Source: an uncultured Gammaproteobacteria bacterium (GTDB lineage Bacteria; Patescibacteriota; Patescibacteriia; 2-01-FULL-39-33). Taken from it: 64,000 bases of DNA. The notes under the pieces are model-generated. The model did no database searches and was not told the DNA's origin. It was given only the letters and a program-made list of their open reading frames with translations. Below are positions 4,521 through 61,982 of this stretch, in pieces (within the stretch, counting starts at the first letter, position 1; each line of letters opens with the position of its first letter). The translations under genes were made by a program, and so were the position numbers. Where the stretch lies: positions 4,678-68,677 of the forward strand of contig CAYGKC010000003.1 of assembly GCA_964350585.1 (NCBI GenBank), written 5' to 3'.

Positions 4521-4947
4521 CAAATGAATAAAAAATTTATATTTTTTTTAATAATTTTATCTTTTTTCTTCTCTATTTTGTTTTCTACTCCGTTAGCCTA
4601 TGCCGCTGATCCTGTTGTAACTCAAAGTTATGAGCTAAACACTCCCATAGGAGGAATTAAAGAATTTAATGTTAGTCAAGGAAGCAATGATATTTTAGGA
4701 AAATACGTAAAAGCATGGTACGGATTTTTATTAGGCATTGTTGGAATTTTAGCGGCTGTAGTGATAATATTCGCAGGAGTAAGATGGATGATATCAAGAG
4801 GGAATTCTTCAGAAACAGGACAGGCTAAAGAAATGATGGTTTCTGCTATTTCTGGACTTGTTTTAGCATTGCTTGCTTACACAATTTTATACTTAATAAA
4901 CCCAACTCTGGTAGTTATAAAAATGCCAGCGCTTGATCCGTTGTATA
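4512..4947 (+). repeat. 436-bp direct repeat, copy 1 (100% identical to 5505..5940): intergenic tail, start codon and N-terminal module of the hydrolase gene
   Basis: Block-by-block comparison of the two regions in the raw sequence found no mismatch. Identity starts 12 nt upstream of the ATG and ends at codon 141/142. Confidence 0.9.
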
Positions 4948-5513
4948 GTGAAGCAACGGAAGGAAGTGCAGGAGCATTAAGAGAAGGCGCAAGAGAAAGA
5001 GCTGACTGCCCACAAACTTCCCAATCTTGTAGAAATTCCACAACCGGTGTGTTAGATTTTGGAAATGTTCCTCCAAAAGCTCCCACAATACCAGCAGACA
5101 TTGAAGCCATAATTACAAGAGTGGCTGGCACTGATAATAATATGAGAGCAATGCTTAGAGCAATATGTATGGCGGAAAGCGGATGTAATCCCAATACCAG
5201 AAGTAGTAGTGCAGGAGCCATAGGCTTAATGCAAATAATGCCTTCCACTGGTGCCAGACTCAACTATACACCTGAACAGCTTAGAGATCCTGAAACCAGC
5301 ATCAGAGGAGCTGCAGCATTAATAACAGAAGGGCGGGCAAAAGGATATACACCACCCCAAATTGCAGCATATTATAACGGCGGCAGCGGTGCTGTTGCTG
5401 CAAGTAGAGACTGCCCAGGAGTTCAAGCCTATCAATGTTGCACAAATCCAGGATGCTTAACTCAAACGCAAGATTATGTTCCTAAAGTTATGAGTTATTA
5501 TAATAATAACTAG
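4524..5513 (+). CDS. secreted/membrane cell-wall hydrolase: T4SS-pilin-like N-terminal module (signal peptide + 2 TM helices) fused to lytic transglycosylase (SLT, VirB1-like) domain
   Basis: N-terminus is a signal peptide ending AYAA. Two hydrophobic helices follow (GFLLGIVGILAAVVIIFAGV; MMVSAISGLVLALLAYTILYLI), giving TrbC/VirB2 or T4SS_pilin-like topology. C-terminal SLT motifs AICMAESGCNPN (catalytic Glu-Ser) and AIGLMQIMPSTG. First 141 aa are identical to the next gene. Confidence 0.65.
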   Translation: MNKKFIFFLIILSFFFSILFSTPLAYAADPVVTQSYELNTPIGGIKEFNVSQGSNDILGKYVKAWYGFLLGIVGILAAVVIIFAGVRWMISRGNSSETGQAKEMMVSAISGLVLALLAYTILYLINPTLVVIKMPALDPLYSEATEGSAGALREGARERADCPQTSQSCRNSTTGVLDFGNVPPKAPTIPADIEAIITRVAGTDNNMRAMLRAICMAESGCNPNTRSSSAGAIGLMQIMPSTGARLNYTPEQLRDPETSIRGAAALITEGRAKGYTPPQIAAYYNGGSGAVAASRDCPGVQAYQCCTNPGCLTQTQDYVPKVMSYYNNN

Positions 5514-5940
5514 CAAATGAATAAAAAATTTATATTTTTTTTAATAATTTTATCTTTTTTCTTCTCTATTTTGTTTTCTACTCCGTTAGCCTATGCCGCT
5601 GATCCTGTTGTAACTCAAAGTTATGAGCTAAACACTCCCATAGGAGGAATTAAAGAATTTAATGTTAGTCAAGGAAGCAATGATATTTTAGGAAAATACG
5701 TAAAAGCATGGTACGGATTTTTATTAGGCATTGTTGGAATTTTAGCGGCTGTAGTGATAATATTCGCAGGAGTAAGATGGATGATATCAAGAGGGAATTC
5801 TTCAGAAACAGGACAGGCTAAAGAAATGATGGTTTCTGCTATTTCTGGACTTGTTTTAGCATTGCTTGCTTACACAATTTTATACTTAATAAACCCAACT
5901 CTGGTAGTTATAAAAATGCCAGCGCTTGATCCGTTGTATA
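5505..5940 (+). repeat. 436-bp direct repeat, copy 2 (tandem, 993 bp offset)
   Basis: Same evidence as copy 1. Sequence diverges completely immediately after ...ccgttgtata. Confidence 0.9.
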
Positions 5941-6329
5941 CTGAAAGCGGTTTAGGCGAAGAAAGCAGTGAAGAAGGTGAAGGCACAGGAAGAGCAGGGA
6001 GTGCGGGCAATAGCGCATCTATCGATGAATTAACACCAGAAGCTCAAGCCTTACATAGATCAATAGTTGAAACATGCGGTCCCGTAACTGCCAACTCTAC
6101 ATACCGACCGGCAAATCGCGCTTCTGCGCATTATAGCAGAATAGCAATTGACTATCCAAGAACTACAGCAATGGATAATTGCATGAATGGCATAATAAAT
6201 GGAGTGGAACCGTATACTAGAGACAAGCAGGGCAATCCCATTTACAGAGTCACTTTTCCTAATGGCGCCAGCGGAAGAATAATTGATGAGCCAGGTAATA
6301 ATTGCTGGCATATTGACCTAAGACCTTAG
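5517..6329 (+). CDS. paralogous cell-wall hydrolase: same pilin-like N-terminal module fused to LAS/M15-type (YcbK/DUF882-like) zinc peptidase domain
   Basis: N-terminal 141 aa are identical to 4524..5513. C-terminus has SAHYSRIAIDY (H-x6-D) and NCWHIDLRP (HxDxR), which resemble Zn-ligand motifs of the peptidase M15/hedgehog-DD-peptidase fold. The family assignment is inferred from motif resemblance only. Confidence 0.5.
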   Translation: MNKKFIFFLIILSFFFSILFSTPLAYAADPVVTQSYELNTPIGGIKEFNVSQGSNDILGKYVKAWYGFLLGIVGILAAVVIIFAGVRWMISRGNSSETGQAKEMMVSAISGLVLALLAYTILYLINPTLVVIKMPALDPLYTESGLGEESSEEGEGTGRAGSAGNSASIDELTPEAQALHRSIVETCGPVTANSTYRPANRASAHYSRIAIDYPRTTAMDNCMNGIINGVEPYTRDKQGNPIYRVTFPNGASGRIIDEPGNNCWHIDLRP

Positions 6330-34125: not shown

Positions 34126-34154
34126 TCAATGCTTCAGACAGTCTGAAGCATTGA
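34126..34154. terminator. 29-nt perfect palindrome TCAATGCTTCAGAC-A-GTCTGAAGCATTGA, likely leuS terminator hairpin (copy 1 of 2)
   Basis: Perfect 14-bp stem with 1-nt centre, 4 nt downstream of the leuS stop. Identical 29-mer at 61954..61982. Confidence 0.55.
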
Positions 34155-34157
34155 ATT

Positions 34158-37100
34158 TTAAATGACAAAACTGATCAGTTTATTGGGAACAAAAATCGTC
34201 TTTTTTATTTGAGAGTTTTCTAGATATTTTTTTACATTCGGCTCATTTTTGGCGGCTTCTACGGCTTGAGCTTCTGCTGTTCCGGCAGGAAGACTTACCT
34301 TTCCCCTGACTTTGCCGTTTATCTGCACCACTATCTCAACCTTTTCGTCTTTTATTTTACTTTCATCGTAGCTTGGCCAAGACTCTTTAAATATGCTTTC
34401 TTTATTTCCCAGCTTTGACCATAATTCTTCCGCCATATGAGGGGCAAAGGGTGAAAGGATGATGAGAAATTTTTGATAGAATTCTTTTGAGACTGATTCT
34501 GCAAACTTATTTACTAGAATCATCATCGCAGAAATTGCGGTATTAAATCTCATGCTCTCAATATCTTCACCGACTTTTTTTATGGTTTTATTTAATAAAA
34601 TATCTAAACCATTATCAGATTGGATTCCCGCCTGCCTGCGCAGGCAGGCCTTCGCGGGAATAACAGTAGCAGGGTCATTACCCATATTCCAAACTTTTTC
34701 CAAAAATCTATCAATACCAACTATGCCTTTTGTGTTCCACGGTTTTACATCTTCAAGCGGGCCCATAAACATTTCATACATTCTAAAAGCATCTGCGCCA
34801 TGTTCAGCTACCACTTCATCAGGATTAACAACATTGCCCCTGGACTTTGACATTTTTTCACTGTCTTCGCCAAGGATCAATCCTTGATTAACAAGTTTTG
34901 CAAACGGCTCTTCCTGCGGAACATATCCCAAATCAAATAAAACCATATTCCAAAACCTGGCATATAGAAGATGAAGAACGGCATGTTCCGCGCCTCCGAC
35001 ATAAACATCCACCGGCAACCAATATTTTAATTTTTCAAGATCGGCAAAGGCATTTTTATTTTGCGGATCAAGATATCTAAGCCAATACCAAGATGAGCCA
35101 GCCCATTGAGGCATGGTGTTTGTTTCTCTTTTGGCATCACCTCCGCAATAAGGACATTTTATCTCAACCCACTCTTTTATATTGGCAAGCGGAGACTCGC
35201 CTGTTCCGGATGGTTCAAATTTATCAACTTCCGGCAAAGTCAAAGGCAATTCATTTTCGGATACTGGAAACCAGCCGTTACTTCGATTTTGTAAAATCAA
35301 ATGGAGTATTTCGGGAATTTCTTTTTCCTGAAAATGTCCAAAGCCCTGCCATAATTCCTTACTCCAGCCGGCTGGCAGAATTTCTTTAGTTTCCATGAAA
35401 ATATAAGGATCATCTTCAGAAAAAATTACGTTTTTACGCTTCACCAATTCGCTAACCTTATTCCAATCTGTCTTTTGGGCTGAAAAATTTTTAAGTGATT
35501 CAATGTCTGATCCAGCCCATTTCTCTTTTAAAGCATCGTAATCTTCATCAGAACTTTTATCCAAAACGGGCGCCACCAATATTAATTGGCCTATTTTCTT
35601 ATTATTTTTTTGGATTAAATTAAGTGCCGCCTTAGCTCCCAAACTATGTCCAATAATTATATCGTTTTCATCCATTTGTTCTATATAAGGATTTAATTCT
35701 TCAATCCATTTTTCCAAAACAGGATGTTGCGCTGTAGTCATTGTGGGATTAAAAACTTCAAAACCCTGCTGCTGCAACTTTTCTTTCAGCCAAGAAAACC
35801 AATTACCGTCACCGTTTCCTTCAAAACCATGAATCATTAAAACTTTTCGTTTTTTGTTTTTGCATTTTTCACAATATATCAAAGGAATCGGCTCGCCCCA
35901 ATATCTTTGCCTGGAAAAAACCCAGTCACGTAATTTATAATTAACCGCCTTTTTACCATGACCATTTTCTTCAAGCCATGCAGTCATTTTGCCAATTACT
36001 TCCGATGGTTTTAAGCCGTTTAAAAATTCTGAATTAATCATTACGCCATTATCAATATCGGTGAAAGCCTTTTCGCCTTTTACTAACTCATCCCAATACC
36101 ATTTATGGCTTGGCAAATTAATAAATTCAGATATTTTATTTTTTGCTATCCATTCGCCTTGATGGTGTTCAACATCAATATCATTTGATCTCTTTCCATC
36201 TTGCAACTCAATATAAAAACATAATGATTCAGCATATCGATTAATACCTTTATGTTCGGCATAATAATTATTATGCGTCTCTACGCTTATTTGCTTTATT
36301 GATTTAATATTTTCATAACCAGTTTCTTCTTTTGTTTCTCTTACTGCAGCTTCCTCCGCAGTTTCTCCCTCTTCTATTCCACCCATTACAAATGATCTCC
36401 AATTGTGTTCTTGCCAATCCAAACAATAATAAGAATCATCCTGCCAGTGTTTAACAATAACATAAACGCTTTTTCTTCTAACTGTTTCTTTTTCCGGTTT
36501 GATTTTATCCTTATCCATTATGGCACCAAAAAGTGGCGCTACAACTTGTACTATTTCCAAACCAAACTTCTTGGCGAATTCCCAGTCTCTTTCGTCATGA
36601 GCCGGCACAGCCATAATTGCTCCGGTCCCATAAGAAGCCAGGACATAATCAGAAATCCAAATCCGAATCTCTTTTCCATTTACGGGATTAACCGCCTTGA
36701 TGCCTTTTAATTCAACTCCTGTTTTATCTTTTGCCAAATCAGTCCTTTCCAAATCGGATTTATTTTTTGCCTGAACAATATATTTGTTCACCTCATCAAA
36801 ATTTTTAATTTTATCTTTTAAATTCTGAATCAATTCATGCTCCGGCGAAAGCACCATATAAGTGGCGCCAAATAAAGTATCAGGACGCGTTGTATAGACA
36901 CGAATTGTCATCTCGGGCTTGCCTGATTCAGAATTCTGGATTCCCGCCTTCGCGGGAATGACAGAAGAATCTGCTGATGCCATAGAATCATTCGCTCCGC
37001 TTTCAACGACTGCAAAATCGACTTCAGCTCCCTCGCTTCTGCCGATCCAATTCCTTTGTTGGGATTTGATTGATTCCGGCCAGTCTAACTTATCCAATCC

Positions 37101-37721
37101 TTTTAATAGCCTATCAGCGTAATTTGTAATTCTAAGCATCCATTGGCGCATATCTTTTTTTACAACTTCAGTTCCGCATCTGTCGCATTTGCCATCTTTA
37201 ACTTCTTCATTGGCAAGACCAGTCTTGCATGAGGGACAAAAATTTATGGGCACGGTAGCTTCATACGCCAAGCCCTTTTTAAATAATTGCAAAAATATCC
37301 ACTGCGTCCATTTATAATAATCCGGATCAGTCGTATCGATTTCCCTTGACCAATCATATGAAAATCCAAGCGATTGAATTTGTCGTTTAAAGGTTGCAAT
37401 GTTTTTGGCAGTTGTTTCGCGCGGATGAGTGCCGGTTTTTATGGCGTAATTTTCTGCAGGCAAACCGAATGCATCCCAACCCATAGGATGTAAAACATTA
37501 AAGCCTTTCATCCGAAAATATCGGGAATATATATCTGTGGCAGTATAGCCTTCAGGATGGCCAACATGAAGCCCTGCTCCAGAAGGATATGGAAACATAT
37601 CCAAAATATATTTTTTGGGTTTTTTATCAAAATCAACGGCTTTATTCAATTCCTTTTTCTCCCAAAAATCCTGCCATTTATTTTCGCCGTCATTTTTTAA
37701 AAATTCTTTATAACTATGCAT
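34158..37721 (-). CDS. leuS: leucyl-tRNA synthetase with in-frame inserted Nudix hydrolase domain and RBBP9/YdeN-type serine hydrolase domain
   Basis: HIGH motif [14 protein letters not shown] and KMSKS motif; editing CP1 (TTRPDT…AVPAHDERD) and Zn motifs CPSCK…CDRCG. At 1187 aa it is ~330 aa longer than typical bacterial LeuRS. Complete Nudix box [23 protein letters not shown] sits at aa ~445-467 (nt ~36100-36480). Alpha/beta hydrolase with GHSLGA nucleophile elbow, Asp (SEDDPY) and His (GFGHF) is at aa ~621-812 (nt ~35286-35861). Confidence 0.9.
34622..34665. repeat. GC-rich palindromic repeat, long variant (GATTCCCGCC-[18-nt nested palindrome]-TTCGCGGGAAT-aACAg), in frame inside leuS
   Basis: Arms ATTCCCGC/GCGGGAAT flank a nested palindrome gcctgcctgc/gcaggcaggc. 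Translated as …[16 protein letters not shown]… in LeuRS. Confidence 0.8.
36939..36964. repeat. GC-rich palindromic repeat GATTCCCGCCTTCGCGGGAATGACAG, in frame inside leuS editing-domain region
   Basis: 8-bp arms ATTCCCGC/GCGGGAAT. Translated as …[14 protein letters not shown]… within a ~25-aa expansion between [10 protein letters not shown] and [10 protein letters not shown]. Antisense reading gives the WIPAFAGMT-type spurious ORF at 36919..37122. Confidence 0.8.
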
Positions 37722-37822
37722 AAAATTAATATTTCTACAGTCTTCTTTTTAAGATTTTAATGTCTTTAAATTAACATAAAACAACAATTAATTCAACTTT
37801 TTACTTCCATTTATAATTCAAT

Positions 37823-38803
37823 ATGTTACACTTTTTGAAGGAGAAACAACATCAAACAGTGGAGGAAAATGCCATGGCAAGATACGCAATAATTTCTGAC
37901 ATGCATTCCTCCACTGGCTATATCATGGAGGAGGCGGAAGTGTTAGCAACAAGATTCGGCAAATGGCTTCTCGGGCCGTTTTACCGATCAATGAAAGAGG
38001 AGATAAAGGATCACCATCATGTTCGCTCTACCTTAGAGAGAATCAAACAGGGCGGTTATGATGGCATCATCGGCTTGGGAGACTATTCGCAAACAGGAGA
38101 GGCAGAAGAAGCCGAAGAGGCTATGGATCTTTTAAATCAGTACTCTAAAGGAGCGCCTCTATATTTGGCTCCAGGAAACCATGACATAAAGTCGTGGGTT
38201 AAATTCGGTGATAGGTGGTCTGAATATTTAAGCGAGGAACAGATAGATTCTTACAAAAAAATATTCGGTCCGCTTTATGGAGCAAAAGAGCTTAAAGGAA
38301 ATGTCATATTAATTTGGCTTATGTCTGAGCCCTTTATGTTTCAATGGCATAAGCATGATCACCTTTCATCAAGGCAATACCGGCTCCTTAACAACATTCT
38401 CAAGGCTCAACTTCAGTTCTTGCAAGAAACACTAAACTGCAAGCAATGGGTTGATAAAAAAATCATTCTGTCTTTGCATGATCCGGGAGCACTGTTGTCT
38501 AGCCATTTAAAAGGAGCACTTTGGCAACATAGAAACAGAATTTTACTTACCCTAACCGGACATATTCATGCAGGTTGGCTTATGAGAATAATGTGCTTGG
38601 TCCATCCTATTCTTTGGCCAAAACTACTATGGCAAATGCGCAGGTATAAAGCGTGGCTTATCCCTTCCGTTTGGGGCATTGCTTTGCCGGATACCTTTTG
38701 GATGGCAGGAGCAGGTTGGGCTGAACTTGATATAAGTGACAGTGGCAACAAACTACTGTTCCATTTCACTAATTCCAAAAAAATAAGAGGTTTTCGTTTA
38801 TAA
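37823..38803 (+). CDS. calcineurin-like metallophosphoesterase (MPP) family protein
   Basis: MPP motifs ISDMH (DxH), GLGDYS (GD), GNHD, and GHIHAGW (GHxH). Paralog of the next gene. Confidence 0.6.
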   Translation: MLHFLKEKQHQTVEENAMARYAIISDMHSSTGYIMEEAEVLATRFGKWLLGPFYRSMKEEIKDHHHVRSTLERIKQGGYDGIIGLGDYSQTGEAEEAEEAMDLLNQYSKGAPLYLAPGNHDIKSWVKFGDRWSEYLSEEQIDSYKKIFGPLYGAKELKGNVILIWLMSEPFMFQWHKHDHLSSRQYRLLNNILKAQLQFLQETLNCKQWVDKKIILSLHDPGALLSSHLKGALWQHRNRILLTLTGHIHAGWLMRIMCLVHPILWPKLLWQMRRYKAWLIPSVWGIALPDTFWMAGAGWAELDISDSGNKLLFHFTNSKKIRGFRL

Positions 38804-38833
38804 AACCGTTCTCAAGAAAGAGAACGGTTTTTA
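38804..38833 (+). terminator. rho-independent terminator (CCGTTCTC-aagaaa-GAGAACGG + TTTTTATT)
   Basis: Perfect 8-bp stem and U-run immediately after the stop at 38803. Confidence 0.6.
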
Positions 38834-38882
38834 TTGACAATAAAGGAGATTTAGTTGATAATATAGTTGCTAAATAAATTTT

Positions 38883-39878
38883 ATGATGCAATTTTTAATA
38901 ATTGCCGACATGCATTTTGCAATTGAAAAAGCAAAAAAAGATAATCGGCAGATTTTACATAAATTAGGCGATATGATCCCCACGCTTAACCAGCGACGTA
39001 TGAGTGGAGCATCATCGCATATACAAAAAACTTTCAGGGAAGCTGCAAATTACGGACCGTACGAAGCGATTATTGATCTAGGAGACAGAACACACGGAAC
39101 ACCGGACAATACTGGACTAATATGCAGTCATAGTGTAAATGAAGCTTTTGAAGCAATAAAATTGCGCAAAGAATCATTTCCCGAAATTCCAGATAATTTA
39201 GTTTGCCAAATACCAGGCAACCATGATTTGGGTTGGGCGCTTTCATCTTTCGCGCGCAAAGGAGACGGCTATCTAAAAAAGAGCTTAGCCAGCTATCGGA
39301 AAATATACGGTCCCCTATTTTGGATGAAAGAATTAACCTCAGAAATTAACGTCATTGGAATATCTTCTGAACCTTTTCTTTATGATTACAACCAGCCTAA
39401 AAAATTCAAAAATGGCGAAAATGAAAAAGAAATTAAAACCAGAATTCTCCTTCTTAAAAATGAACTTGCTCTTCAGCTTTCCTTTATAAAAAATTCCCTG
39501 CAAGAGATAAAACAAAAAAATAAAAAATTCATACTTGCAGTACATGAACCCTTTGCCATGCTTTCTCCTAAACTTCAGGCATTAATAGAACCTTACAAAG
39601 AAAGGCATTTAGTTACTCTCGCAGGCCATGTTCATGCCAGATGGCTGATGAATATTTTAAACTTCACGATGCCTCAAAATAGTCTGCCAATATTCAAACG
39701 TTATAAAATACAAATGATTCCTTCAGTATGGGGCATAATGATTCCTTCAATTCCTTGGGGAATCGGAGCCGGTTGGGCAAGGATAGTCATTGAAGATGAT
39801 GGGCATATCAATCTTTACATTTACAGAACAAACAAAAAAAAGTTCCAAGGCATACGCCTTGGAAAATCTTGTTTATAA
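38883..39878 (+). CDS. calcineurin-like metallophosphoesterase family protein (tandem paralog)
   Basis: Motifs IADMH, DLGDRT, GNHD, and GHVHARW, with the same spacing as the preceding gene. Confidence 0.6.
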   Translation: MMQFLIIADMHFAIEKAKKDNRQILHKLGDMIPTLNQRRMSGASSHIQKTFREAANYGPYEAIIDLGDRTHGTPDNTGLICSHSVNEAFEAIKLRKESFPEIPDNLVCQIPGNHDLGWALSSFARKGDGYLKKSLASYRKIYGPLFWMKELTSEINVIGISSEPFLYDYNQPKKFKNGENEKEIKTRILLLKNELALQLSFIKNSLQEIKQKNKKFILAVHEPFAMLSPKLQALIEPYKERHLVTLAGHVHARWLMNILNFTMPQNSLPIFKRYKIQMIPSVWGIMIPSIPWGIGAGWARIVIEDDGHINLYIYRTNKKKFQGIRLGKSCL

Positions 39879-39887
39879 TAAACTAAT

Positions 39888-42752
39888 TTATTTTATTAAA
39901 CTTTTTAAATACTTTCCAGTATAGCTGTTTTTTGCTTTTATAATTTCCAGTGGCGTTCCCTCTGCCACTATATAGCCTCCTTTTTCACCGCCCTCAGGTC
40001 CCAAATCAATAACCCAATCAGCTGATTTTATCACGTCCAAATTGTGCTCCACTATTAAAACAGAGTTTTCCTTATCCACTAGACGGTTAAGCACTTGAAG
40101 CAACCTGTTGACGTCATCAAAATGCAAACCCGTTGTAGGCTCGTCTAAAATATAAAGCGTTTTGCCGGTCGGCCTTCGCGAAAGCTCAGTTGCCAATTTT
40201 ACTCTTTGGGCTTCACCACCCGAGAGAGTCGTTGCGCTTTGCCCTAACCGCAAATATCCAAGTCCCACTTCTTCGAGTATATGAAGCTTATCAACTATCT
40301 GAACATCTTCAGCAAAAAACTTCTTAGCTTCAGAAACTGTCATATCAAGCACATCAGCAATATTCTTTCCACTTCCCTGATATCCGGAAGGTGAGTAATA
40401 AATATCCAAAGCTTCTTTATTATATCTTTTGCCGTGACATTCTTCACATTCTATAAACACGTCGGGCAGAAATTGCATTTCGATTTTCACATAACCCTCT
40501 CCCCCGCAATTTTCACATCTTCCTCCTCCTTTTACATTAAAACTAAAATGTCCAAGCTTAAAGCCTCTCATTTTACTTTCAGGAAGAGAAGCGTATAAAT
40601 CCCTTATATAAGTAAACACGCCGGTATATGTTGCTGGATTAGATCGTGGCGTTCTTCCTATTGGAGATTGATCAATATTTATTACCTTATCTAAATTTTC
40701 CATTCCCTTGATTTCTTTGTGTTTGCCGGGAAGTTCTTTTGTGCGGTAAAATTTCGCAGCCAAGGCTTTAGCTAAAATTTCAGACATCAGTGTGGATTTA
40801 CCCGAACCAGAAACTCCGGAAATAACAACTAAGCTTGCCAAAGGTATTTTTACATCAATATTTTTTAAATTAAATTCACTGGCTCCTAAAATTTGAAGAA
40901 ATTTTCCATTGCCCTTGCGAAATTCTTTGCGTATCGGTATTGATTTTTTCCCTGAAAGATACTGACCGGTAATAGATTTTTTATCAGTCAAAATTTGCTT
41001 TGGCGTTCCTTCAAAGACCAATTCTCCGCCCAGCACTCCGGCTCCAGGGCCTATATCTATCAAGTAATCTGATTCTCTCATAACTTGTTCGTCATGTTCA
41101 ACAACAATTACAGTATTGCCTTTATCTCTTAAATTTTTAAGTGTTGTAACTAACTTTTCAGTATCCCGGGCATGCAAACCGATTGAAGGCTCATCAAGAA
41201 CATAAGTCACTGATTCCAACCCTGATCCTATCTGAGTCGCCAACCTAATTCTTTGAGCTTCACCGCCGGCAAGAGTATTAGCACTTCTTGACAGAGCCAA
41301 GTAATCCAAGCCTACATTTTTTAAATAAGTCAGTTTTTTCTCTATTTCGCGTATTACTTGTTTAGCAATTTTTCCTTCATTCTTTCCTTCCCACTGCTTT
41401 GAAACCTTCGCAAAAAACTCGGCTATTTTATTGCCGTCAAGATTCGTAAGCTGTGAAATATTTACTGAATCAATTGTGACAGAAAGACTTTCGGGCTTTA
41501 GCCTTGCGCCTTTGCAACTGGGACAAGTAGAAATCCTCATATACTCTTCAAGTGTCTTCTGAAGATATTCTGATTTAGTATCCTTATATTTATCATCCAA
41601 AAACTTAATCAATCCCTCAAATCTAAACATTTGACCATCAATTTCATATGTTTCGTTTCCGCTTCCGTTGAAAATCATTTCTTGGACTTTCGGACTCAAC
41701 TCGCCAAATGGAATATTCAAGTCAAACTTATTTTTTTCTGCAACTTTTTCCAATAATTTAAAATTAGTATTTTGGGATGCAAAATTTCTAGCCCACGGCT
41801 TAATTGCGCCTTCCGCCAACGTAAGACGTTTATTTGGAACAATAAGATCTGGGTTGGGAACCAATTTTATGCCTAATCCTTTGCAAGAACCGCATGCGCC
41901 AAAAGGCGAATTAAAAGAAAAACTTCTTGGCTCAATCTCAGGCAAATTTATTCCGCAGAAATGACAGACATAGTAAAGATTAAAATTAATATTGTCTTCT
42001 TTTTTAGGCAAATAAATATTTACAAATCCATTTCCCAAATCCAAAGCGATATTTAAAGCTTTAACTAATCTCTGATAATCCAAATCTGAGGGTTTTTTTT
42101 CTGCAATCTCAGAAGATATAACCATTTTATCAATAAGAACCTCCACTGTATGATTTTGATCCTTAGAAAGTGAGAGTTCTTTAATTTCTTCATAATTATA
42201 AAAATTTCCGTCAATTCTGAAAATTTCATAGTTGCTTTTGATCATTGCGTCTATTTCTTTAGAATGAGATCCTTTCTTATTAAGAATAATTGGTGAAAGA
42301 ATTTGTATTTCGCTTCCAGGATCTAATTTTACAATTTGATCCAAAATTTCCGAAGCTGTTTGCCTGCCAACTTCCCTACCGCATTGCGGGCAATGGACAG
42401 TTCCCACCTTTGCATAAAGCAATCTTAAATAATCATAGATTTCCGTAATGGTTCCGACAGTCGAACGGGGATTAACTGATGATGATTTCTGATCTATTGC
42501 AATCGTCGGCGTCAATCCTTCAATACTGTCAACATCTGGTTTATCCATCAAATCCAAAAATTGTTTGGCATATGATGACAAACTTTCTGCGTAGCGTCTT
42601 TGCCCTTCAGCATATATTGTATCAAAAGCCAAAGATGATTTACCGGATCCTGAAAGCCCTGTTATTACAACTAGCTTATTTTTAGGAATATCAATACTTA
42701 AATTCTTTAAATTATTGACCCTTGATTTTTTAATGCTGATTTTTTCGAGCAT
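39888..42752 (-). CDS. uvrA: excinuclease ABC subunit A
   Basis: Two ABC ATPase modules ([12 protein letters not shown]; [11 protein letters not shown]). Signature LSGGEAQR appears twice. Zn-finger Cys clusters. Confidence 0.9.
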
Positions 42753-42821
42753 GTTTTTTGATGATTAATAAGAGACGATCAAATTAACATCCATTATAAA
42801 GGAAAAGTCGCGCTTGGTCAA

Positions 42822-42852
42822 GCAATCAAAAAGAACGGCCCAATAGCCGTTC
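42822..42852 (-). terminator. rho-independent terminator for 42867..43244 gene (GAACGGC-tattgg-GCCGTTC + U-run on minus strand)
   Basis: 7-bp stem at 42833-42852 with an A-run on the plus strand (a U-run on the minus strand) downstream of the minus-strand stop. Confidence 0.5.
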
Positions 42853-42866
42853 AAATTGACTCAATA

Positions 42867-43244
42867 TTAAGATCTTCTGTTCACCTTATATCTAACTCCA
42901 AAGAAATATATTAGGACCACCACCATAAAGTAAATATAAATAATTGCTCCCACAATCCATCCGATTATCGGGATTAACATTACCATACTCGCAATAAATG
43001 GAACAAGAACTAAATTATAAAACCAGGTTTTTTTTGATACTCCTGATTTTTCAAAGGTGACATGTTCAGTCATGCCCCAATGATAAACATTTATCAAATT
43101 AAGAATGCCAATAATAATAGCTATTATCCCAATGATAAGAGCTGTTATGCCTAATCCTGCCAAAACAGATTCTAAAGTTGAAGTTTCCACATTTCCCCAA
43201 CCCCAATCAGGAAGAGAAAACATCTGCAAAGCGTATAAAAACAT
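42867..43244 (-). CDS. small hypothetical membrane protein (3-4 TM)
   Basis: ORF of 125 aa, very hydrophobic (GITALIIGIIAIIIGILNLI…; IPIIGWIVGAIIYIYFMVVVLIYFF). Confidence 0.35.
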   Translation of the reverse strand: MFLYALQMFSLPDWGWGNVETSTLESVLAGLGITALIIGIIAIIIGILNLINVYHWGMTEHVTFEKSGVSKKTWFYNLVLVPFIASMVMLIPIIGWIVGAIIYIYFMVVVLIYFFGVRYKVNRRS

Positions 43245-43309
43245 TTAAATTCACCTCCTTTCGTTTAATATTTTTACAAATTCTATAATAATAATTTATT
43301 ATTATGAAT

Positions 43310-44221
43310 TTATGAAGCTGAATTTAAATTATATTTTTCGATATTTTTATTACAGATGTTTTGAATTTTCTTAATTTCAACTTTCCCCTCTTCAGAAGAG
43401 AATAAGTGCTTGAATCTTTTTTGAATTTTTAAAAATTCTTCTACAGGAACCTGCTTCGTAACTTTCATTTTGTTAACCAACTCTCCGTTTATATACTCAA
43501 TAATAGGATAAAAACCGGATTGCACTGCAAGGCGCGCCACATTTAAGGAATCTTTAGGCTCTATGCCCCAGCCGGGCACGCAAGAGGTATAAATTTGTAA
43601 ATACTTCGGTCCTTTTATGCTCAGTGCTTTTTTTACTTTATTTACGATGTCCGTTGGGTAGCCCATAGTAGATGTAGCAACATAAGGCAAGTGGTGCGCC
43701 AAAGCAATACCTATCATATCTTTTTTGACTTGTTGGCTGCCAAAAGATTCTTTTCCAGGCGGTGTAGTGGAAGTATTGGCATTTAAAGGAGTTGATCCGC
43801 TAGATTGGTAACCTGTATTCTGATAAGCTTCATTGTCAAAACAAATATATAAGATATTTTCTCCTCTTTCCCACATGCCTGAAATCTGTCCCATGCCGAT
43901 ATCAAAAGTAGCGCCATCACCGCCTATGGCAATTACGTTTATTTTTTCATCTTCTTTTTTGTGTTTGAGAGCTGATAAAATACCGGAGGCGATTGAGGAA
44001 GAGTTCTCAAATAGGCTATGAATCCATGGCATCTTGAATGCTGTCATGGGATATTGGGTAGTTGTCACTTCACTGCAACCTGTTGCATTGGCAATTATAG
44101 TGTTCGGTCCTGCAGCATCAGCTAAAAGCCTATAAGCAATAATCATTCCGCAACCGGCGCATGCGCTATGGCCTGGATTCACTTGATGCGATATTGGAGC
44201 TTTGTATTTTTTATTTTCCAT
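43310..44221 (-). CDS. porB: 2-oxoacid (pyruvate):ferredoxin oxidoreductase beta subunit (TPP-binding)
   Basis: GCSEVTT and the TPP-binding GGDGATFDIGMG motif. Cys ligands for the proximal [4Fe-4S]. Confidence 0.8.
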   Translation of the reverse strand: MENKKYKAPISHQVNPGHSACAGCGMIIAYRLLADAAGPNTIIANATGCSEVTTTQYPMTAFKMPWIHSLFENSSSIASGILSALKHKKEDEKINVIAIGGDGATFDIGMGQISGMWERGENILYICFDNEAYQNTGYQSSGSTPLNANTSTTPPGKESFGSQQVKKDMIGIALAHHLPYVATSTMGYPTDIVNKVKKALSIKGPKYLQIYTSCVPGWGIEPKDSLNVARLAVQSGFYPIIEYINGELVNKMKVTKQVPVEEFLKIQKRFKHLFSSEEGKVEIKKIQNICNKNIEKYNLNSAS

Positions 44222-44309
44222 ATTTAAACTTTTAATGTCTGATTAATTATTTTTTTCTTATCATCGTGAACCATATCAGCCTTTGGAGAATAAACTATCC
44301 ATACTACTA

Positions 44310-44334
44310 GATTCCCGCCTTCGCGGGAATGACA
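44310..44334. repeat. GC-rich palindromic repeat GATTCCCGCCTTCGCGGGAATGACA (intergenic copy between porA and porB)
   Basis: Same 8-bp inverted arms as the two leuS copies. Lies 9 nt downstream of the porA stop. Confidence 0.8.
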
Positions 44335-44342
44335 AACAACGT

Positions 44343-45476
44343 TTATCTACCGACAAAAATAACTTTTTCTTTTGGGTTTTTAACAGTTGAATAAACTTGC
44401 TTAATCATATTTTTTGTAATATCCCTTCCGCCAAGACCAAGAATATAACTTACAATATTTTTCTTTTGCCCCATTAACGCTCTTTTTATTTCAGTAGCGA
44501 TAATTCCCTCCTGTCCGAGAGATATTGATTTATCAACCACGGCAATATTTTTTGCCTTTGCTAAAATCTCTGCGATTTTTGCATCGGGAAACGGTCTAAA
44601 TGAAACTATTTTCAAAACTCCGACATTCTTTTTATCTTTTTTAAGCTCATCCACCGCTTCTTTTATTGTCCCAAGAACAGATCCCATAGCCACAATTACA
44701 GTATCAGCATCTTTATCACCGTAATATTCAATTAAATTCAAGCTCCTGCCAAAAAATTTTTTAAATTCTTTCATTTCTTTTTGCAGTTTCTTTTCTGAAG
44801 AAACTAAGTCATCATGCAATTCTTTCCTAATTTCCATGTAATGCTGAGGCGTCGCAAAAGCTCCAAAAGTCAGAGGCTTTTCTGTATCAAGATATTCTTT
44901 TGGAGTATAAGGAGGCAAATATTTTTTCACTTCTTCTTCCGTGGCTATATCAACCGGCTCCACAACATGAGTCAAGACAAATCCGTCCAAGTTAACCATG
45001 ACCGGAAGCTCGAGGCTTTCTCCCACTTTATATGCCAGTATATGCAAATCGCAAACTTCTTGCACTGTTTCGCCAAAAAGCATTATCCAGCCGGCATCGC
45101 GAATAACCATTACATCTTGCTGATCATTCCAAATATTTATGGGAGCAGAAACTGCTCGATTGGCATCTGTAACGATTACCGGCAATCTCATCCCGGCAAT
45201 ATTATACAAAACCTCTGTCATTAATAATAAACCCTGCGATGATGTCGCAGTATAAACTCTTACGCCCGTTGCAGAAGCGCCTTCAACTATTGATGCGGCC
45301 GCAAATTCGCTTTCCGCCCTGACATATTCAAAATCCGCTTTGCCATCCGCTTTAAGCTTGGCCAGATCTTCAACAATGTGAGTCTGAGGCGTAATCGGAT
45401 AAGCAGATACCACTGCCGGCTTTATCGCATTTATTGTTTCGGCAATCGCACGACTGCCTTCTAATATTTTTTTCAT
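44343..45476 (-). CDS. porA: 2-oxoacid:ferredoxin oxidoreductase alpha subunit
   Basis: ORF of 377 aa. Homologous layout to POR alpha domain I/II (…YPITPQT…GAS..G.R.), and adjacent to porB. Confidence 0.75.
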   Translation of the reverse strand: MKKILEGSRAIAETINAIKPAVVSAYPITPQTHIVEDLAKLKADGKADFEYVRAESEFAAASIVEGASATGVRVYTATSSQGLLLMTEVLYNIAGMRLPVIVTDANRAVSAPINIWNDQQDVMVIRDAGWIMLFGETVQEVCDLHILAYKVGESLELPVMVNLDGFVLTHVVEPVDIATEEEVKKYLPPYTPKEYLDTEKPLTFGAFATPQHYMEIRKELHDDLVSSEKKLQKEMKEFKKFFGRSLNLIEYYGDKDADTVIVAMGSVLGTIKEAVDELKKDKKNVGVLKIVSFRPFPDAKIAEILAKAKNIAVVDKSISLGQEGIIATEIKRALMGQKKNIVSYILGLGGRDITKNMIKQVYSTVKNPKEKVIFVGR

Positions 45477-51661: not shown

Positions 51662-53500
51662 TTGCCTCTTAAGGCAAAAAAATTTATGAATGAAAGAACA
51701 AACAGCTACTATAAACAAAGTGGCTCTCAAAGAAAACATGCGCAAAAAAAATCAACACAGAACGTTGCAAATATTGCCTATGAAAAAAACAACGACAAAA
51801 AAAATCAAACCAGAACCGCTCCAGAAAAAAAAGATGAAAATCTTTTGAAAATAATCCCTCTTGGGGGATGCGAAGAAGTTGGAAGAAATATGACTCTCTT
51901 TGAATATAAGAAAGACATTATTATCCTTGATATGGGAATACAATTTCCGGAAGAAGATATGCCGGGAATTGATTACATTATTCCCAACATTGAATATCTT
52001 AAAGGCAAAGAAAAAAACGTCAAAGGAGTAATTTTTTCTCACGGCCATTTAGATCATATCGGAGCTGCCCCCATACTTTTAGAAAAACTCGGCAATCCTC
52101 CTATTGTAGGTATGGATTTTACCTTAGCAATGATAAAGCACAGACAGGAAGATTATAAGAAAGATACGGCAGACAAACTCAAAATAATTAATATCAAAAA
52201 TTTAAACGACAAAATACGCCTTGGAGAATTTTCAATCGAATTTTTTCAAATAGAACATTCCATTATGGATGCTGTCGGTGTAATAATCAAAACTCCCGTA
52301 GCCACCTTAGTTCATCCAGGCGACTGGACGCTTGAAAGAGATAAAAACGGTAAGCCATTTTTAGATTTTTCATTTTTGTCGAAACTACCAAGACCCACAG
52401 TACTGATGCTAGAAAGCTTAGGCTCAACAGACGTAAGAGAAAGCGCCACTACTGAAGAGATGAAAAAAAACCTAACACAACTAATTTCCGAATCATCCGG
52501 AAGGATAATCATCGGAACATTTTCCTCGCAAATAGAAAGAATCGGATGGATCTTTTCTATTGCCCAAAAATTAGGAAAGAAAATCGCGCTTGACGGATAT
52601 AGCATGAAGGTCAATGTTGAAATCGCCAAGAAATTAGGTTATATAAAAATAACCAAGGGTGAGCTTATTAAAATAGAACAAATTGACAATTACCCAGATA
52701 ACAAAATTATCGTATTATGCACTGGCGCTCAAGGCGAAGGAAATGCAGTCCTATCTAGAATTATTGACGGTACCCACAGGCATTTAAAACTGAAGAAAAG
52801 TGATACAGTAATCCTTTCTTCATCCATTATTCCCGGAAATGAAAGAACAATACAAAGACTGAAAGACAATCTTTACAGACAATGTGATAACGTTATCCAT
52901 GGAAGCATTATGGACATCCACGTATCAGGACATGGCAATAAGGAAGATATTAAATACATGCTCCATCAAATCAGTCCTGATTATTTTATTCCTGTTTATG
53001 CGCATCATTACATGCTTAAAGAAGCCGCTAAGCTTGCTAAAGTTGAAGGCTTTAGGGAAGATAGAATTTTTGTTCCTGATAATGGACAGATTATAGAGTT
53101 CGATAAGTCGGGTGGCAGAATAACAGATAAAAAAGTTCCTGCCAATTATGTTTTTGTAGACGGACTTGGAATAACTGACAGTAGCAACGTTGTTATTAGA
53201 GACAGAAAAATGATGGCGGAAGATGGTATGCTCGTTGTTATTGCAACCATAGATGCCAAAACAGGAAATTTAGTTCACAATCCTGATCTTATTTCAAGGG
53301 GTTTTGTTTATTTAAAAGAAAATAAAAAACTTATTGAAATGACAAGACAGAAAGTTAAAAAAATGCTCAAAGATGAAAATCCTTTGACTGCGCCTGATGA
53401 CCAGTATCTCAAAGATAAAATTAGAAATGAAATCGGCAAGTTTTTATACCAAAAAACTGAAAAAAGGCCAATGATTCTCCCAGTTATAATCGAAGTTTAA
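51662..53500 (+). CDS. rnj: ribonuclease J (metallo-beta-lactamase/beta-CASP RNase)
   Basis: Motif HGHLDHIG, beta-CASP region, and N-terminal LKIIPLGGCEEVGRNMT typical of RNase J. A ~60-aa basic N-terminal extension. Confidence 0.8.
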   Translation: MPLKAKKFMNERTNSYYKQSGSQRKHAQKKSTQNVANIAYEKNNDKKNQTRTAPEKKDENLLKIIPLGGCEEVGRNMTLFEYKKDIIILDMGIQFPEEDMPGIDYIIPNIEYLKGKEKNVKGVIFSHGHLDHIGAAPILLEKLGNPPIVGMDFTLAMIKHRQEDYKKDTADKLKIINIKNLNDKIRLGEFSIEFFQIEHSIMDAVGVIIKTPVATLVHPGDWTLERDKNGKPFLDFSFLSKLPRPTVLMLESLGSTDVRESATTEEMKKNLTQLISESSGRIIIGTFSSQIERIGWIFSIAQKLGKKIALDGYSMKVNVEIAKKLGYIKITKGELIKIEQIDNYPDNKIIVLCTGAQGEGNAVLSRIIDGTHRHLKLKKSDTVILSSSIIPGNERTIQRLKDNLYRQCDNVIHGSIMDIHVSGHGNKEDIKYMLHQISPDYFIPVYAHHYMLKEAAKLAKVEGFREDRIFVPDNGQIIEFDKSGGRITDKKVPANYVFVDGLGITDSSNVVIRDRKMMAEDGMLVVIATIDAKTGNLVHNPDLISRGFVYLKENKKLIEMTRQKVKKMLKDENPLTAPDDQYLKDKIRNEIGKFLYQKTEKRPMILPVIIEV

Positions 53501-53501
53501 C

Positions 53502-53536
53502 CTAAAAAAAATCCCGCCTAGGCGGGATTTTTTTAA
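53502..53536. terminator. bidirectional rho-independent terminator (A7-ATCCCGCC-tag-GCGGGAT-T7)
   Basis: Perfect 8-bp GC-rich stem flanked by an A-run and a T-run, between convergent rnj and the speH-like gene. Confidence 0.7.
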
Positions 53537-53922
53537 TATCGCAAAAGGATTTTACTCCTTGATTTTTTCGCTTTGAAATATTTCTTGGCGAACTCCTCAG
53601 CAAGACTTGGATCAAAAAACTTGCAACTGAAAATGTCAATAAATCCCCTATCTCCTGTTTTATCATCTAGATGCAAAACAACTGATGATGTTTCTATAAA
53701 TTGCATCGCACTGTATCCTTCTAAAGACCCTTCACCAAACTTTTTCAAGTGGGTAGAGCCGTAAGGCTTCATATTGATCTTTTCAATCAACTCGGCAACA
53801 AATTTCTTTATTGCTTTTGGCGACTGAATTAACTTGTTATCGCAGCCAGAAAGATCAATGCTGGCTAACATACCCCACGCCCCGCTAGACTTATAGCGCT
53901 GACGCAAAGTTGAAATGTCCAT
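53533..53922 (-). CDS. speH: S-adenosylmethionine decarboxylase proenzyme, small (SpeH/class 1) type
   Basis: ORF of 129 aa. GCD…, …LEGYSAMQFIETSSVVLH… (the ES self-cleavage site context) and GFIDIFSCKFFDP align with Bacillus/archaeal SpeH motifs (GVSGVVIISESHLTIH; SIDVYTCG..DP). Confidence 0.55.
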   Translation of the reverse strand: MDISTLRQRYKSSGAWGMLASIDLSGCDNKLIQSPKAIKKFVAELIEKINMKPYGSTHLKKFGEGSLEGYSAMQFIETSSVVLHLDDKTGDRGFIDIFSCKFFDPSLAEEFAKKYFKAKKSRSKILLRY

Positions 53923-61953: not shown

Positions 61954-61982
61954 TCAATGCTTCAGACAGTCTGAAGCATTGA
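61954..61982. terminator. 29-nt perfect palindrome TCAATGCTTCAGACAGTCTGAAGCATTGA flanked by A-run/T-run; bidirectional terminator (copy 2)
   Basis: Identical to 34126..34154. Lies between convergent Nudix and rsmE genes, with AAAA upstream and TTTT downstream. Confidence 0.6.

Follow-up and report, generated by a model that had tools for sequence, protein, structure and literature searches.

Three probable CGTC-1 repeat units in a Patescibacteria genome, two of them within the gene for leucyl-tRNA synthetase

CGTC-tagged repetitive extragenic palindromic sequences (REPs) were defined as a group by Di Nocera, De Gregorio and Rocco (Di Nocera et al. 2013, PMC3733652). Members of their CGTC-1 class combine a tag, often TGTC, with an 8-bp stem whose first letters are AT, a 4-nt loop and a CCA tail; the class includes dRS3 of Neisseria as well as the Rickettsia palindromic element (RPE) RPE-6 of R. 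conorii (PMC3733652), an equivalence that we take from that study. In-frame intragenic CGTC and GTAG REPs, including copies in tRNA synthetase genes, were reported in the same work. More recently, dRS3 (ATTCCC-N8-GGGAAT) was described in a longer form, NTS (CGTCATTCCCGCGMAVGCGGGAATCYRG), and broadened into an ‘Ssn-related motif’ (SRM; Chenal et al. 2025, PMC11893778). The sequence-specific partner of the family in Neisseria, Wolbachia and relatives is Ssn. SsnA, a small single-domain GIY-YIG protein, binds and cuts NTS only as single-stranded DNA (ssDNA) and on one strand only, and NTS together with SsnA lowers transformation of N. meningitidis about 5-fold; these authors noted an insertion sequence-like architecture and put forward such behaviour as a hypothesis (PMC11893778). 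Here we describe three units of this kind in a 64,000-nucleotide stretch of an uncultured bacterium placed in the Patescibacteriota by GTDB (GenBank assembly GCA_964350585.1, contig CAYGKC010000003.1; hereafter the window). Two of them lie in frame in leuS, the gene for leucyl-tRNA synthetase (LeuRS), and one lies between a porA-like and a porB-like gene. The best overall explanation, which we consider probable, is that three CGTC-1 REP units (dRS3/NTS/RPE-6/SRM) have inserted here and that two of them are now translated in loops of LeuRS.

A search for the pattern ATTCCCGC-N(3-30)-GCGGGAAT returned three matches in the window (34624-34661, 36940-36959 and 44311-44330), all in the same orientation, versus none in 100 dinucleotide-preserving shuffles. 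This upholds the three copies with 8-bp inverted arms that an earlier reading of the sequence (the original prediction) had claimed, and the positions it gave them were likewise correct: two inside leuS, translated as VIPAKAGIQ-type loop peptides, and one between porA and porB. The first leuS copy (site 1) and the intergenic copy share the 25-mer GATTCCCGCCTTCGCGGGAATGACA letter for letter (36939-36963 and 44310-44334), and the hairpin units stand out against an AT-rich background (32-38% G+C). The intergenic unit lies 8 nt past the stop codon of the porA-like gene (44343..45476, minus strand; POR_N and PFOR_II domains) and 85 nt ahead of the start codon of the porB-like gene (43310..44221, minus strand; TPP_enzyme_C domain). 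In the second leuS copy (site 2) the tag has mutated from TGTC to TGTT, and a palindrome is wedged between the loop and the 3′ arm; this palindrome, first described as 20 bp long, is present but measures 18 nt. Two antisense open reading frames (ORFs), 36919..37122 (reading WIPAFAGMT) and 34552..34887 (with a 15-aa peptide), both exist and read the other strand of the element, as expected of the by-products they had been taken for. A generic scan for GC-rich hairpins in the window found only the three units and terminators.

Table 1. Positions of the repeat units, their probable decayed relatives and the host gene in the window
Feature	Position	Strand	Remarks
leuS host gene	34158..37721	minus	1187 aa; HVGH and KMSKS motifs intact; also NUDIX and Ser_hydrolase insertions
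Expanded site-1 loop	36906..37013	minus	aa 237-272; exceeds the loop of ortholog P0002 by 28 codons
Probable decayed older unit A	36985..37010	minus	GTCGTTGAAAGCGGAGCGAATGATTC (VVESGANDS); left border of site-1 insert
Intact CGTC-1/NTS unit, leuS site 1	36936..36963	minus	TGTCATTCCCGCGAAGGCGGGAATCCAG; in frame; encodes (S)VIPAKAGIQ
Probable decayed reverse-oriented unit B	36907..36929	minus	GAATCAGGCAAGCCCGAGATGAC (SGKPEMT); right border of site-1 insert
Degenerate CGTC-1 unit, leuS site 2	34620..34665	minus	TGTTATTCCCGCGAAGG[CCTGCCTGCGCAGGCAGG]CGGGAATCCAA; tag TGTT; 15-aa peptide, aa 1020-1034
Nested 18-nt perfect palindrome	34631..34648	.	CCTGCCTGC/GCAGGCAGG, full string CCTGCCTGCGCAGGCAGG; second widespread palindromic repeat
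Intact CGTC-1/NTS unit, intergenic	44307..44334	minus	TGTCATTCCCGCGAAGGCGGGAATCTAG; spacer between porA-like and porB-like genes

Trait by trait, the units agree with the published family. Their stem and loop (ATTCCCGC-GAAG-GCGGGAAT) comprise an 8-bp stem starting with AT and a 4-nt loop; an unpaired TGTC tag is found at 36960-36963 and 44331-44334 (minus strand), with TGTT in the third copy; and the tails read CCA at site 1, CTA in the por copy and CCA at site 2. The dRS3 pattern fits two copies exactly and the third with N26, owing to the nested palindrome. These two intact copies each agree with 27 of the 28 letters of the NTS consensus (one mismatch; no such match in the shuffles) and also fit the published degenerate SRM pattern. 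Structure prediction, carried out as ssDNA folding, gave stable hairpins of -8.9 to -14.9 kcal/mol with z-scores from -3.4 to -5.8 (-12 kcal/mol and -4.8 for the intact site-1 unit). In Rfam the window produced only a sub-threshold match to FtrB at 44290-44356 (minus strand; 29.7 bits versus a gathering score of 66), which is explained by the NTS-like hairpin contained in this RNA (Northern probe GAGATTCCCGCCTACGCGGGAATGAC): a member of the repeat family is part of FtrB, an abundant small RNA (sRNA) of Francisella. Features of other families were not seen. Terminal inverted repeats of 15-30 bp and a target-site duplication, as in miniature inverted-repeat transposable elements, are lacking, the 141 copies listed from other genomes (see below) having no common flank or duplication, and the TGTC tag and the lack of a Y1 homolog in the window set the units apart from GTAG REPs and the REPIN-RAYT system. 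Judged by their sequence, the window units are thus the CGTC-1 tagged REP (dRS3/NTS/RPE-6/SRM), an element already named and pan-bacterial. A reading of the repeat as a novelty of one AT-rich lineage does not hold. The parallel to Rickettsia palindromic elements that the original prediction had drawn turns out to be closer than proposed, RPE-6 being itself classed in CGTC-1 (PMC3733652). It was the DNA strings that led to the key papers; a literature search with the encoded peptides found nothing relevant.

The comparison with described systems can be drawn more finely. With the CGTC-1 REPs of 2013 the units share the (C/T)GTC tag, the 8-bp AT stem, the 4-nt loop and the CCA tail, the occurrence as singletons and, probably, head-to-head dimers, the position just 3′ of ORFs and the in-frame intragenic copies, tRNA synthetase genes included. 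They differ in their host, as Patescibacteria were not among the five phyla of that study (PMC3733652), in their low density (3 per 64 kb) and in the second palindrome nested in the loop of the site-2 unit. CGTC-1 REPs are described as numerous in each genome and mostly arranged as head-to-head dimers; the window holds three copies, one of them with a probable decayed reverse unit. The NTS/Ssn system (PMC11893778) resembles the locus in the near-complete consensus match, the SRM pattern and the presence of the identical element beside GIY-YIG genes in other genomes. Unlike there, the window contains no ssn gene, the 2025 paper mentions neither Patescibacteria nor intragenic or in-frame copies, and a role in transformation is known for Neisseria only. 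Rickettsia palindromic elements (RPE-4/RPE-6 and RPE-1) are likewise inserted in frame in functional, even essential genes and translated as surface peptides, although RPE-1 is a longer palindromic insertion than the single 28-nt units and dimers seen here (a qualitative comparison of size; PMC3733652). GTAG REPs and REPINs with their RAYT proteins are also short tagged hairpins with inverted doublets, an ssDNA biology and occasional intragenic copies, but they carry a GTAG tag and their enzyme is a Y1 HUH transposase rather than a GIY-YIG nuclease. Both the element family and its in-frame occurrence in genes are therefore already known. What appears, from comparative sequence evidence, to go beyond the literature is the Patescibacteria host, the finding of several family members in a single LeuRS loop across relatives, the nested and probably layered build of the inserts and the link between the palindrome and GIY-YIG cassettes.

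Although interrupted by two palindromic inserts, leuS remains open and retains its catalytic motifs, as do genes hosting RPEs. Its product matches the tRNA-synt_1, editing and anticodon-binding domains, and VIPAKAGIQ occupies aa 254-262, with the 15-aa peptide of site 2 further downstream (Table 1). When the element was read by hand in all six frames, five proved free of stop codons, which helps to explain how coding copies can survive. In an alignment with the LeuRS of T. thermophilus (1H3N), aa 239-269 of the window protein remain unaligned between two blocks and only residues 237-239 of 1H3N fall in the gap; the site-1 loop accordingly joins the catalytic core to the CP1 editing domain. An AlphaFold model shows coil with a predicted local distance difference test score (pLDDT) below 50 at aa 243-269 and 1021-1035, but this model, built from a 14-sequence alignment, is poor overall (pLDDT 63, predicted template modelling score 0.32), so that low confidence at the inserts lends them weak support.

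The LeuRS of relatives separates inserted from inherited sequence. We compared the 120 best homologs, overwhelmingly from Patescibacteria. Of these, P0002 is the closest full-length ortholog (71-73% identity). Both inserts are missing from it, and the codons on either side can be aligned without ambiguity, which is why we regard the segments as members of a repeat family and not as ancestral parts of the protein. Beyond the longer site-1 loop, the window protein has 16 inserted codons at site 2, a net gain of 12 once a 4-codon gap in the window sequence is subtracted. By an approximate hand tally, some 70 of the 120 homologs show the site-1 loop in its basal form, 8-10 aa in length (e.g. DFKIAGSEEK), and most orthologs lack the two insert loops or fill them with unrelated sequence. 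At least 18 of the 120 carry peptides of the same superfamily in the site-1 loop (VIPAEAGIQ…SGMT, VIPSEAEGS, VIASEAKQSH…SLAMT and VIASDRRERGNP…SLGMT), in many cases with a reverse-unit peptide behind it whose last residues are …MT or …ND. The underlying units belong to different CGTC subfamilies and use slightly different codons.

Site 1 itself may be layered. Its insert has borders in common with those of P0013 and P0011 at the DNA level (GAT TTY NNN / GTC ... ATGAC / A), and all three inserts close with ...ATGAC/A just before I/L-R/K-V-Y-T-T-R. On the left, the probable unit A shows the border GAT TTT NNN / GTC as in P0013 and is about 73% identical, by eye, to the intact GTCATTGCGAGCGAAGCGAAGCAATCC of P0013 at the same position; its hairpin arms are no longer complementary. 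On the right, the probable unit B lies 6 nt from the intact unit and ends in GAGATGAC, while its reverse complement resembles the NTSvar-type GTCATCTCGGGCTTG. A clean head-to-head dimer, CGTCATTCCCGCGGAGGCGGGAATCCAG-TCTT-CTGGATCCCGGATCAAGTCCGGGATGAC, is found at site 1 of P0011. From these borders and similarities we infer that site 1 of the window holds a younger, intact NTS unit between the arms of an older, decayed head-to-head dimer, and that the site-2 unit, with its mutated tag, is an older one whose loop was later invaded by a second palindromic repeat.

Other insertions were noticed in the same enzyme. The window LeuRS contains a complete NUDIX domain and a Ser_hydrolase (PF06821) domain, inserted in frame at aa 438-530 and 627-798. 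One or both of these insertions are common to a clade of Patescibacteria LeuRS, and in P0069, P0075 and P0079 the hydrolase domain is located at site 1 instead; a literature search on leucyl-tRNA synthetase, Nudix and Candidate Phyla Radiation found no paper. In P0013 (L125 10001-12697), a third insertion site in the anticodon-binding domain holds apparent GTAG-tagged hairpins (GTAGAGACGC…GCGTCTC; peptides ETHCHVSQ…VETRFIAS), and the second arm of its site-1 dimer has a nested CGTC-like hairpin, i.e. another repeat inside a repeat. P0078 (L128 2019-5222) has a RAYT-like Y1 domain in frame at site 1 (72 bits versus a cutoff of 80 for NF047646; Pfam Y1_Tnp at E 1.7e-14). Ahead of this domain lie two different hairpin repeats, ACCCCCGAATTTATTCGGGGGGT and one of the CCAATTAATTGG type, both in duplicate.

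Outside this enzyme the unit is widespread. An exact scan for the 25-mer, restricted to one genome per species, found at least 120 stretches with at least 141 copies; the same DNA is intergenic in the window and present in at least 120 other stretches, which bears out the insertion of a repeat over an ancestral protein segment. Among the matches listed, hosts include Bacteroidota, Planctomycetota, Nitrospirales, Chloroflexi, Cyanobacteria, Actinomycetes, Alpha-, Beta-, Gamma- and Deltaproteobacteria, Rickettsia and Tisiphia endosymbionts and Coxiellaceae, together with 17 Patescibacteria loci. The 141 listed copies share nothing in their flanks beyond the unit itself. Inverted doublets ([TGTCATTCCCGCGAAGGCGGGAATCCAG]-~20 nt-[CTGGATTCCCGCCTTCGCGGGAATGACA]) are frequent among them, and the partner units often keep a GTCAT…ATCC frame with compensating stem substitutions (ATCCCCGC/GCGGGGAT, ATACCTGC/GCAGGTAT and ATGCTGAA/TTCAGCAT). 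Of the 141 listed copies, 11 fall within ORFs of at least 250 aa; in L020, a Rickettsia endosymbiont genome, exact copies lie inside an ORF of 1137 aa.

In some of these genomes the element adjoins a candidate enzyme gene. A single-domain GIY-YIG ORF lies next to the identical element in 9 of the 120 loci among the matches listed, and the three of these nine that were checked against Pfam are 81-95 aa long with E values of ~1e-16 to 1e-17. L117, a Rickettsiaceae contig, shows an NTS-gene-NTS arrangement, and L022 and L031 are Patescibacteria loci with a GIY-YIG ORF. The pairing of element and GIY-YIG gene, as judged from these loci, is hence present in the phylum of the window and reproduces the association reported by Chenal et al. 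(PMC11893778).

The palindrome nested in the site-2 unit leads to a similar partner. The 18-nt insert is absent from the 120 listed loci of the 25-mer, while a metagenome scan for CCTGCCTGC-N(0-30)-GCAGGCAGG gave at least ~128 matches. The centre is CG in 66 of the ~128 listed, yielding the 20-nt palindrome CCTGCCTGCCGGCAGGCAGG, and the matches listed are mostly on AT-rich contigs, many of them from groundwater samples. In L209 (740-1200) and L217 (4330-4760) the palindrome directly flanks GIY-YIG ORFs. The L209 element adjoins a tRNA-Asn gene whose 5′ part is present a second time, the palindrome being located in the D-arm of that duplicate, and the flanking direct repeats of L217 look tRNA-like by eye, which suggests tRNA genes as targets of the palindrome element. 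Copies also occur inside CGTC-type units in L131, L163 and L210; with 7 of 102 matches listed versus a background of 3.2%, the enrichment within CGTC units is weak and suggestive only. A small GIY-YIG domain stands in frame in the LeuRS editing domain of P0061 (L127 3001-5685) and also of P0063, both from Komeilibacteria-like genomes; the P0061 cassette is bounded by the inverted repeats CCTGCCTGCGCCGCGGCCGG … CCGGCCGGACGCGGCAGGCAGG. These ends start with CCTGCCTGC… and end with …GCAGGCAGG, the exact halves of the window palindrome. By these likenesses, the nested insert belongs to a second family of hairpin repeats that, like the first, is associated with small GIY-YIG genes, and it may be a minimal derivative or footprint of a GIY-YIG cassette. 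A literature search with the palindrome sequence found no paper among those searched.

Taken as CGTC-1 insertions, the three units admit a simple history. They would be non-coding elements of ~28 nt that fold as ssDNA hairpins, two of which landed in two variable surface loops of LeuRS and were simply translated there as VIPAKAGIQ-type peptides. With five of six frames open, they could persist, and only stop-free inserts of 3n length would survive in an essential gene. The third would have settled just past a stop codon inside an operon, the commonest REP position. Copies would have spread via an ssDNA intermediate that served as substrate for an Ssn-type nuclease, whose gene would lie in another part of the genome or have since been lost. 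The tag-forward, cleavable strand is the minus strand for all three units, and the minus strand is G-rich by GC skew over most of the window; being the sense strand of the genes as well, it leaves orientation to replication and to transcription inseparable with three copies. That two of the three lie in one gene is mildly unusual (rough hand estimates of p ~0.01 for leuS and ~0.04 for any gene).

Several observations weigh against this history. Neither a GIY-YIG homolog (tblastn and an iterated hidden Markov model search) nor a Y1 transposase homolog was found in the 64-kb window, which leaves the cognate enzyme of this genome a putative one, and the activities demonstrated for Ssn are binding and cutting, not transposition. 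A loose scan of the window for decayed tagged hairpins gave 12 matches versus 18.6 in shuffles and hence no hidden copies; with three copies per 64 kb and no excess of decayed ones, activity of the element in its own genome is not demonstrated. Presence/absence variation, which the original prediction had proposed as a check, was not seen: leuS was found in the window and three other assemblies and is 100% identical at the DNA level in all four. The recurrent occupancy of the site-1 loop could also reflect a single old insertion that gene conversion later replaced, and units A and B are recognised by border position and ~70% similarity only.

How do other explanations fare? The finding of related peptides at the same place in several relatives might be read as a sign that the VIPAKAGIQ segments are an ancestral LeuRS loop whose likeness to the intergenic copy is coincidental or convergent. 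An identity of 25-28 nt with that copy and with more than 120 unrelated genomes, the lack of both inserts in the nearest full-length ortholog and the compensatory nature of stem variants in relatives, which speaks for constraint at the DNA or RNA level and not at the protein level, leave this idea effectively refuted. Virtually no weight falls on the proposal that the family derives from, or equals, intrinsic-terminator hairpins. Its starting point, a hairpin at 53504-53534 (A8-TCCCGCC-TA-GGCGGGA-T7; full string AAAAAAAATCCCGCCTAGGCGGGATTTTTTT), does exist, is GC-rich like the units and shares the heptamer TCCCGCC with them. However, it was wrongly taken for a close relative: it has A8/T7 tracts, a 2-nt centre and neither TGTC nor CCA tags, and its neighbours are two convergent ORFs, 51662..53500 (plus strand) and 53533..53922 (minus strand). 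With its A/T-tracts and convergent genes, it is an ordinary bidirectional intrinsic terminator, and the derivation of the family from terminator-like hairpins thereby loses its support. Conversely, none of the three units is followed by a T-run on the transcribed strand, i.e. they lack the U-tract of an intrinsic terminator, and the other terminators of the window have unrelated stems.

More serious competitors concern how the units move and why they stay. In Pseudomonas and E. coli, Y1 tyrosine transposases (RAYT or IS200-type) are known to mobilise REP doublets and REPINs (a subject also treated in PMC3733652), Di Nocera et al. allowed that other transposases might be borrowed by CGTC units (PMC3733652), and P0078 has its RAYT-like domain in frame at exactly LeuRS site 1. 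Mobilisation of the present units by such an enzyme instead of an Ssn nuclease is nonetheless improbable, given that the tag is TGTC/CGTC and not GTAG, that Di Nocera et al. found no CGTC units flanking a RAYT gene (PMC3733652), that the window has no Y1 homolog, that the hairpins beside the P0078 domain are of a different sequence type and that the nine enzyme genes adjoining the identical element among the matches listed encode GIY-YIG and not RAYT proteins. Slightly less remote, but still unlikely, is retention for a function in place, be it as an mRNA-stabilising or -processing hairpin after porA or as recombination or uptake marks in DNA, as for NTS in Neisseria. The intergenic copy, so close behind a stop codon in a co-directional gene pair, has the typical ‘uni-REP’ position, which Di Nocera et al. 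interpret as a sign that REPs are transcribed and may act as RNA (PMC3733652); the NTS-like hairpin of FtrB and the effect of NTS and SsnA on meningococcal transformation (PMC11893778) fit a function as well. Yet both coding copies occupy loops that in most orthologs are absent or hold unrelated sequence, the tag of one copy is mutated and its loop disrupted, and the arrival of the copies would go unexplained, so that function complements CGTC-1 insertion more than it competes with it.

A broader proposal, which is tentative and rather doubtful, joins these strands. The core/editing loop of Patescibacteria LeuRS may have received ssDNA-hairpin elements and their accompanying genes again and again, hairpin repeats may offer candidate-phyla-radiation proteins one route to extra peptides and whole domains, and the untagged palindrome CCTGCCTGC(CG)GCAGGCAGG may be the recognition hairpin of an undescribed Ssn-like branch that inserts into the loops of other hairpins and into tRNA genes. 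The landing-site part builds on the CGTC units of several subfamilies in the loop, the GTAG-type units at another site in P0013, the RAYT-like domain of P0078, the GIY-YIG cassette elsewhere in the LeuRS of P0061 and P0063, and the serine-hydrolase domain found in the loop of some relatives.

In practical terms, annotators should mask the element, as it gives rise to spurious antisense ORFs and inflated protein lengths. The dRS3/NTS/CGTC family is extended to Patescibacteria, and LeuRS, an essential enzyme hit repeatedly at one loop by different family members, offers a convenient natural series on the target choice of hairpins and their tolerance by proteins. The link between the nested palindrome and GIY-YIG genes may provide a second candidate hairpin-nuclease pair, Ssn enzymes being under development as programmable ssDNA cutters.

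Two further observations were made in the window. A second repeated hairpin, TCAATGCTTCAGACAGTCTGAAGCATTGA, occurs with A/T-tract flanks at 34126-34154, immediately 3′ of leuS, and at 61954-61982, between convergent ORFs, and looks like a shared terminator module. Finally, the tandem genes 4524-5513 and 5517-6329 encode proteins whose N-terminal ~140 aa are identical (300-nt repeat with 100% identity), hydrophobic and signal- or pilin-like, whereas their C-terminal domains differ.

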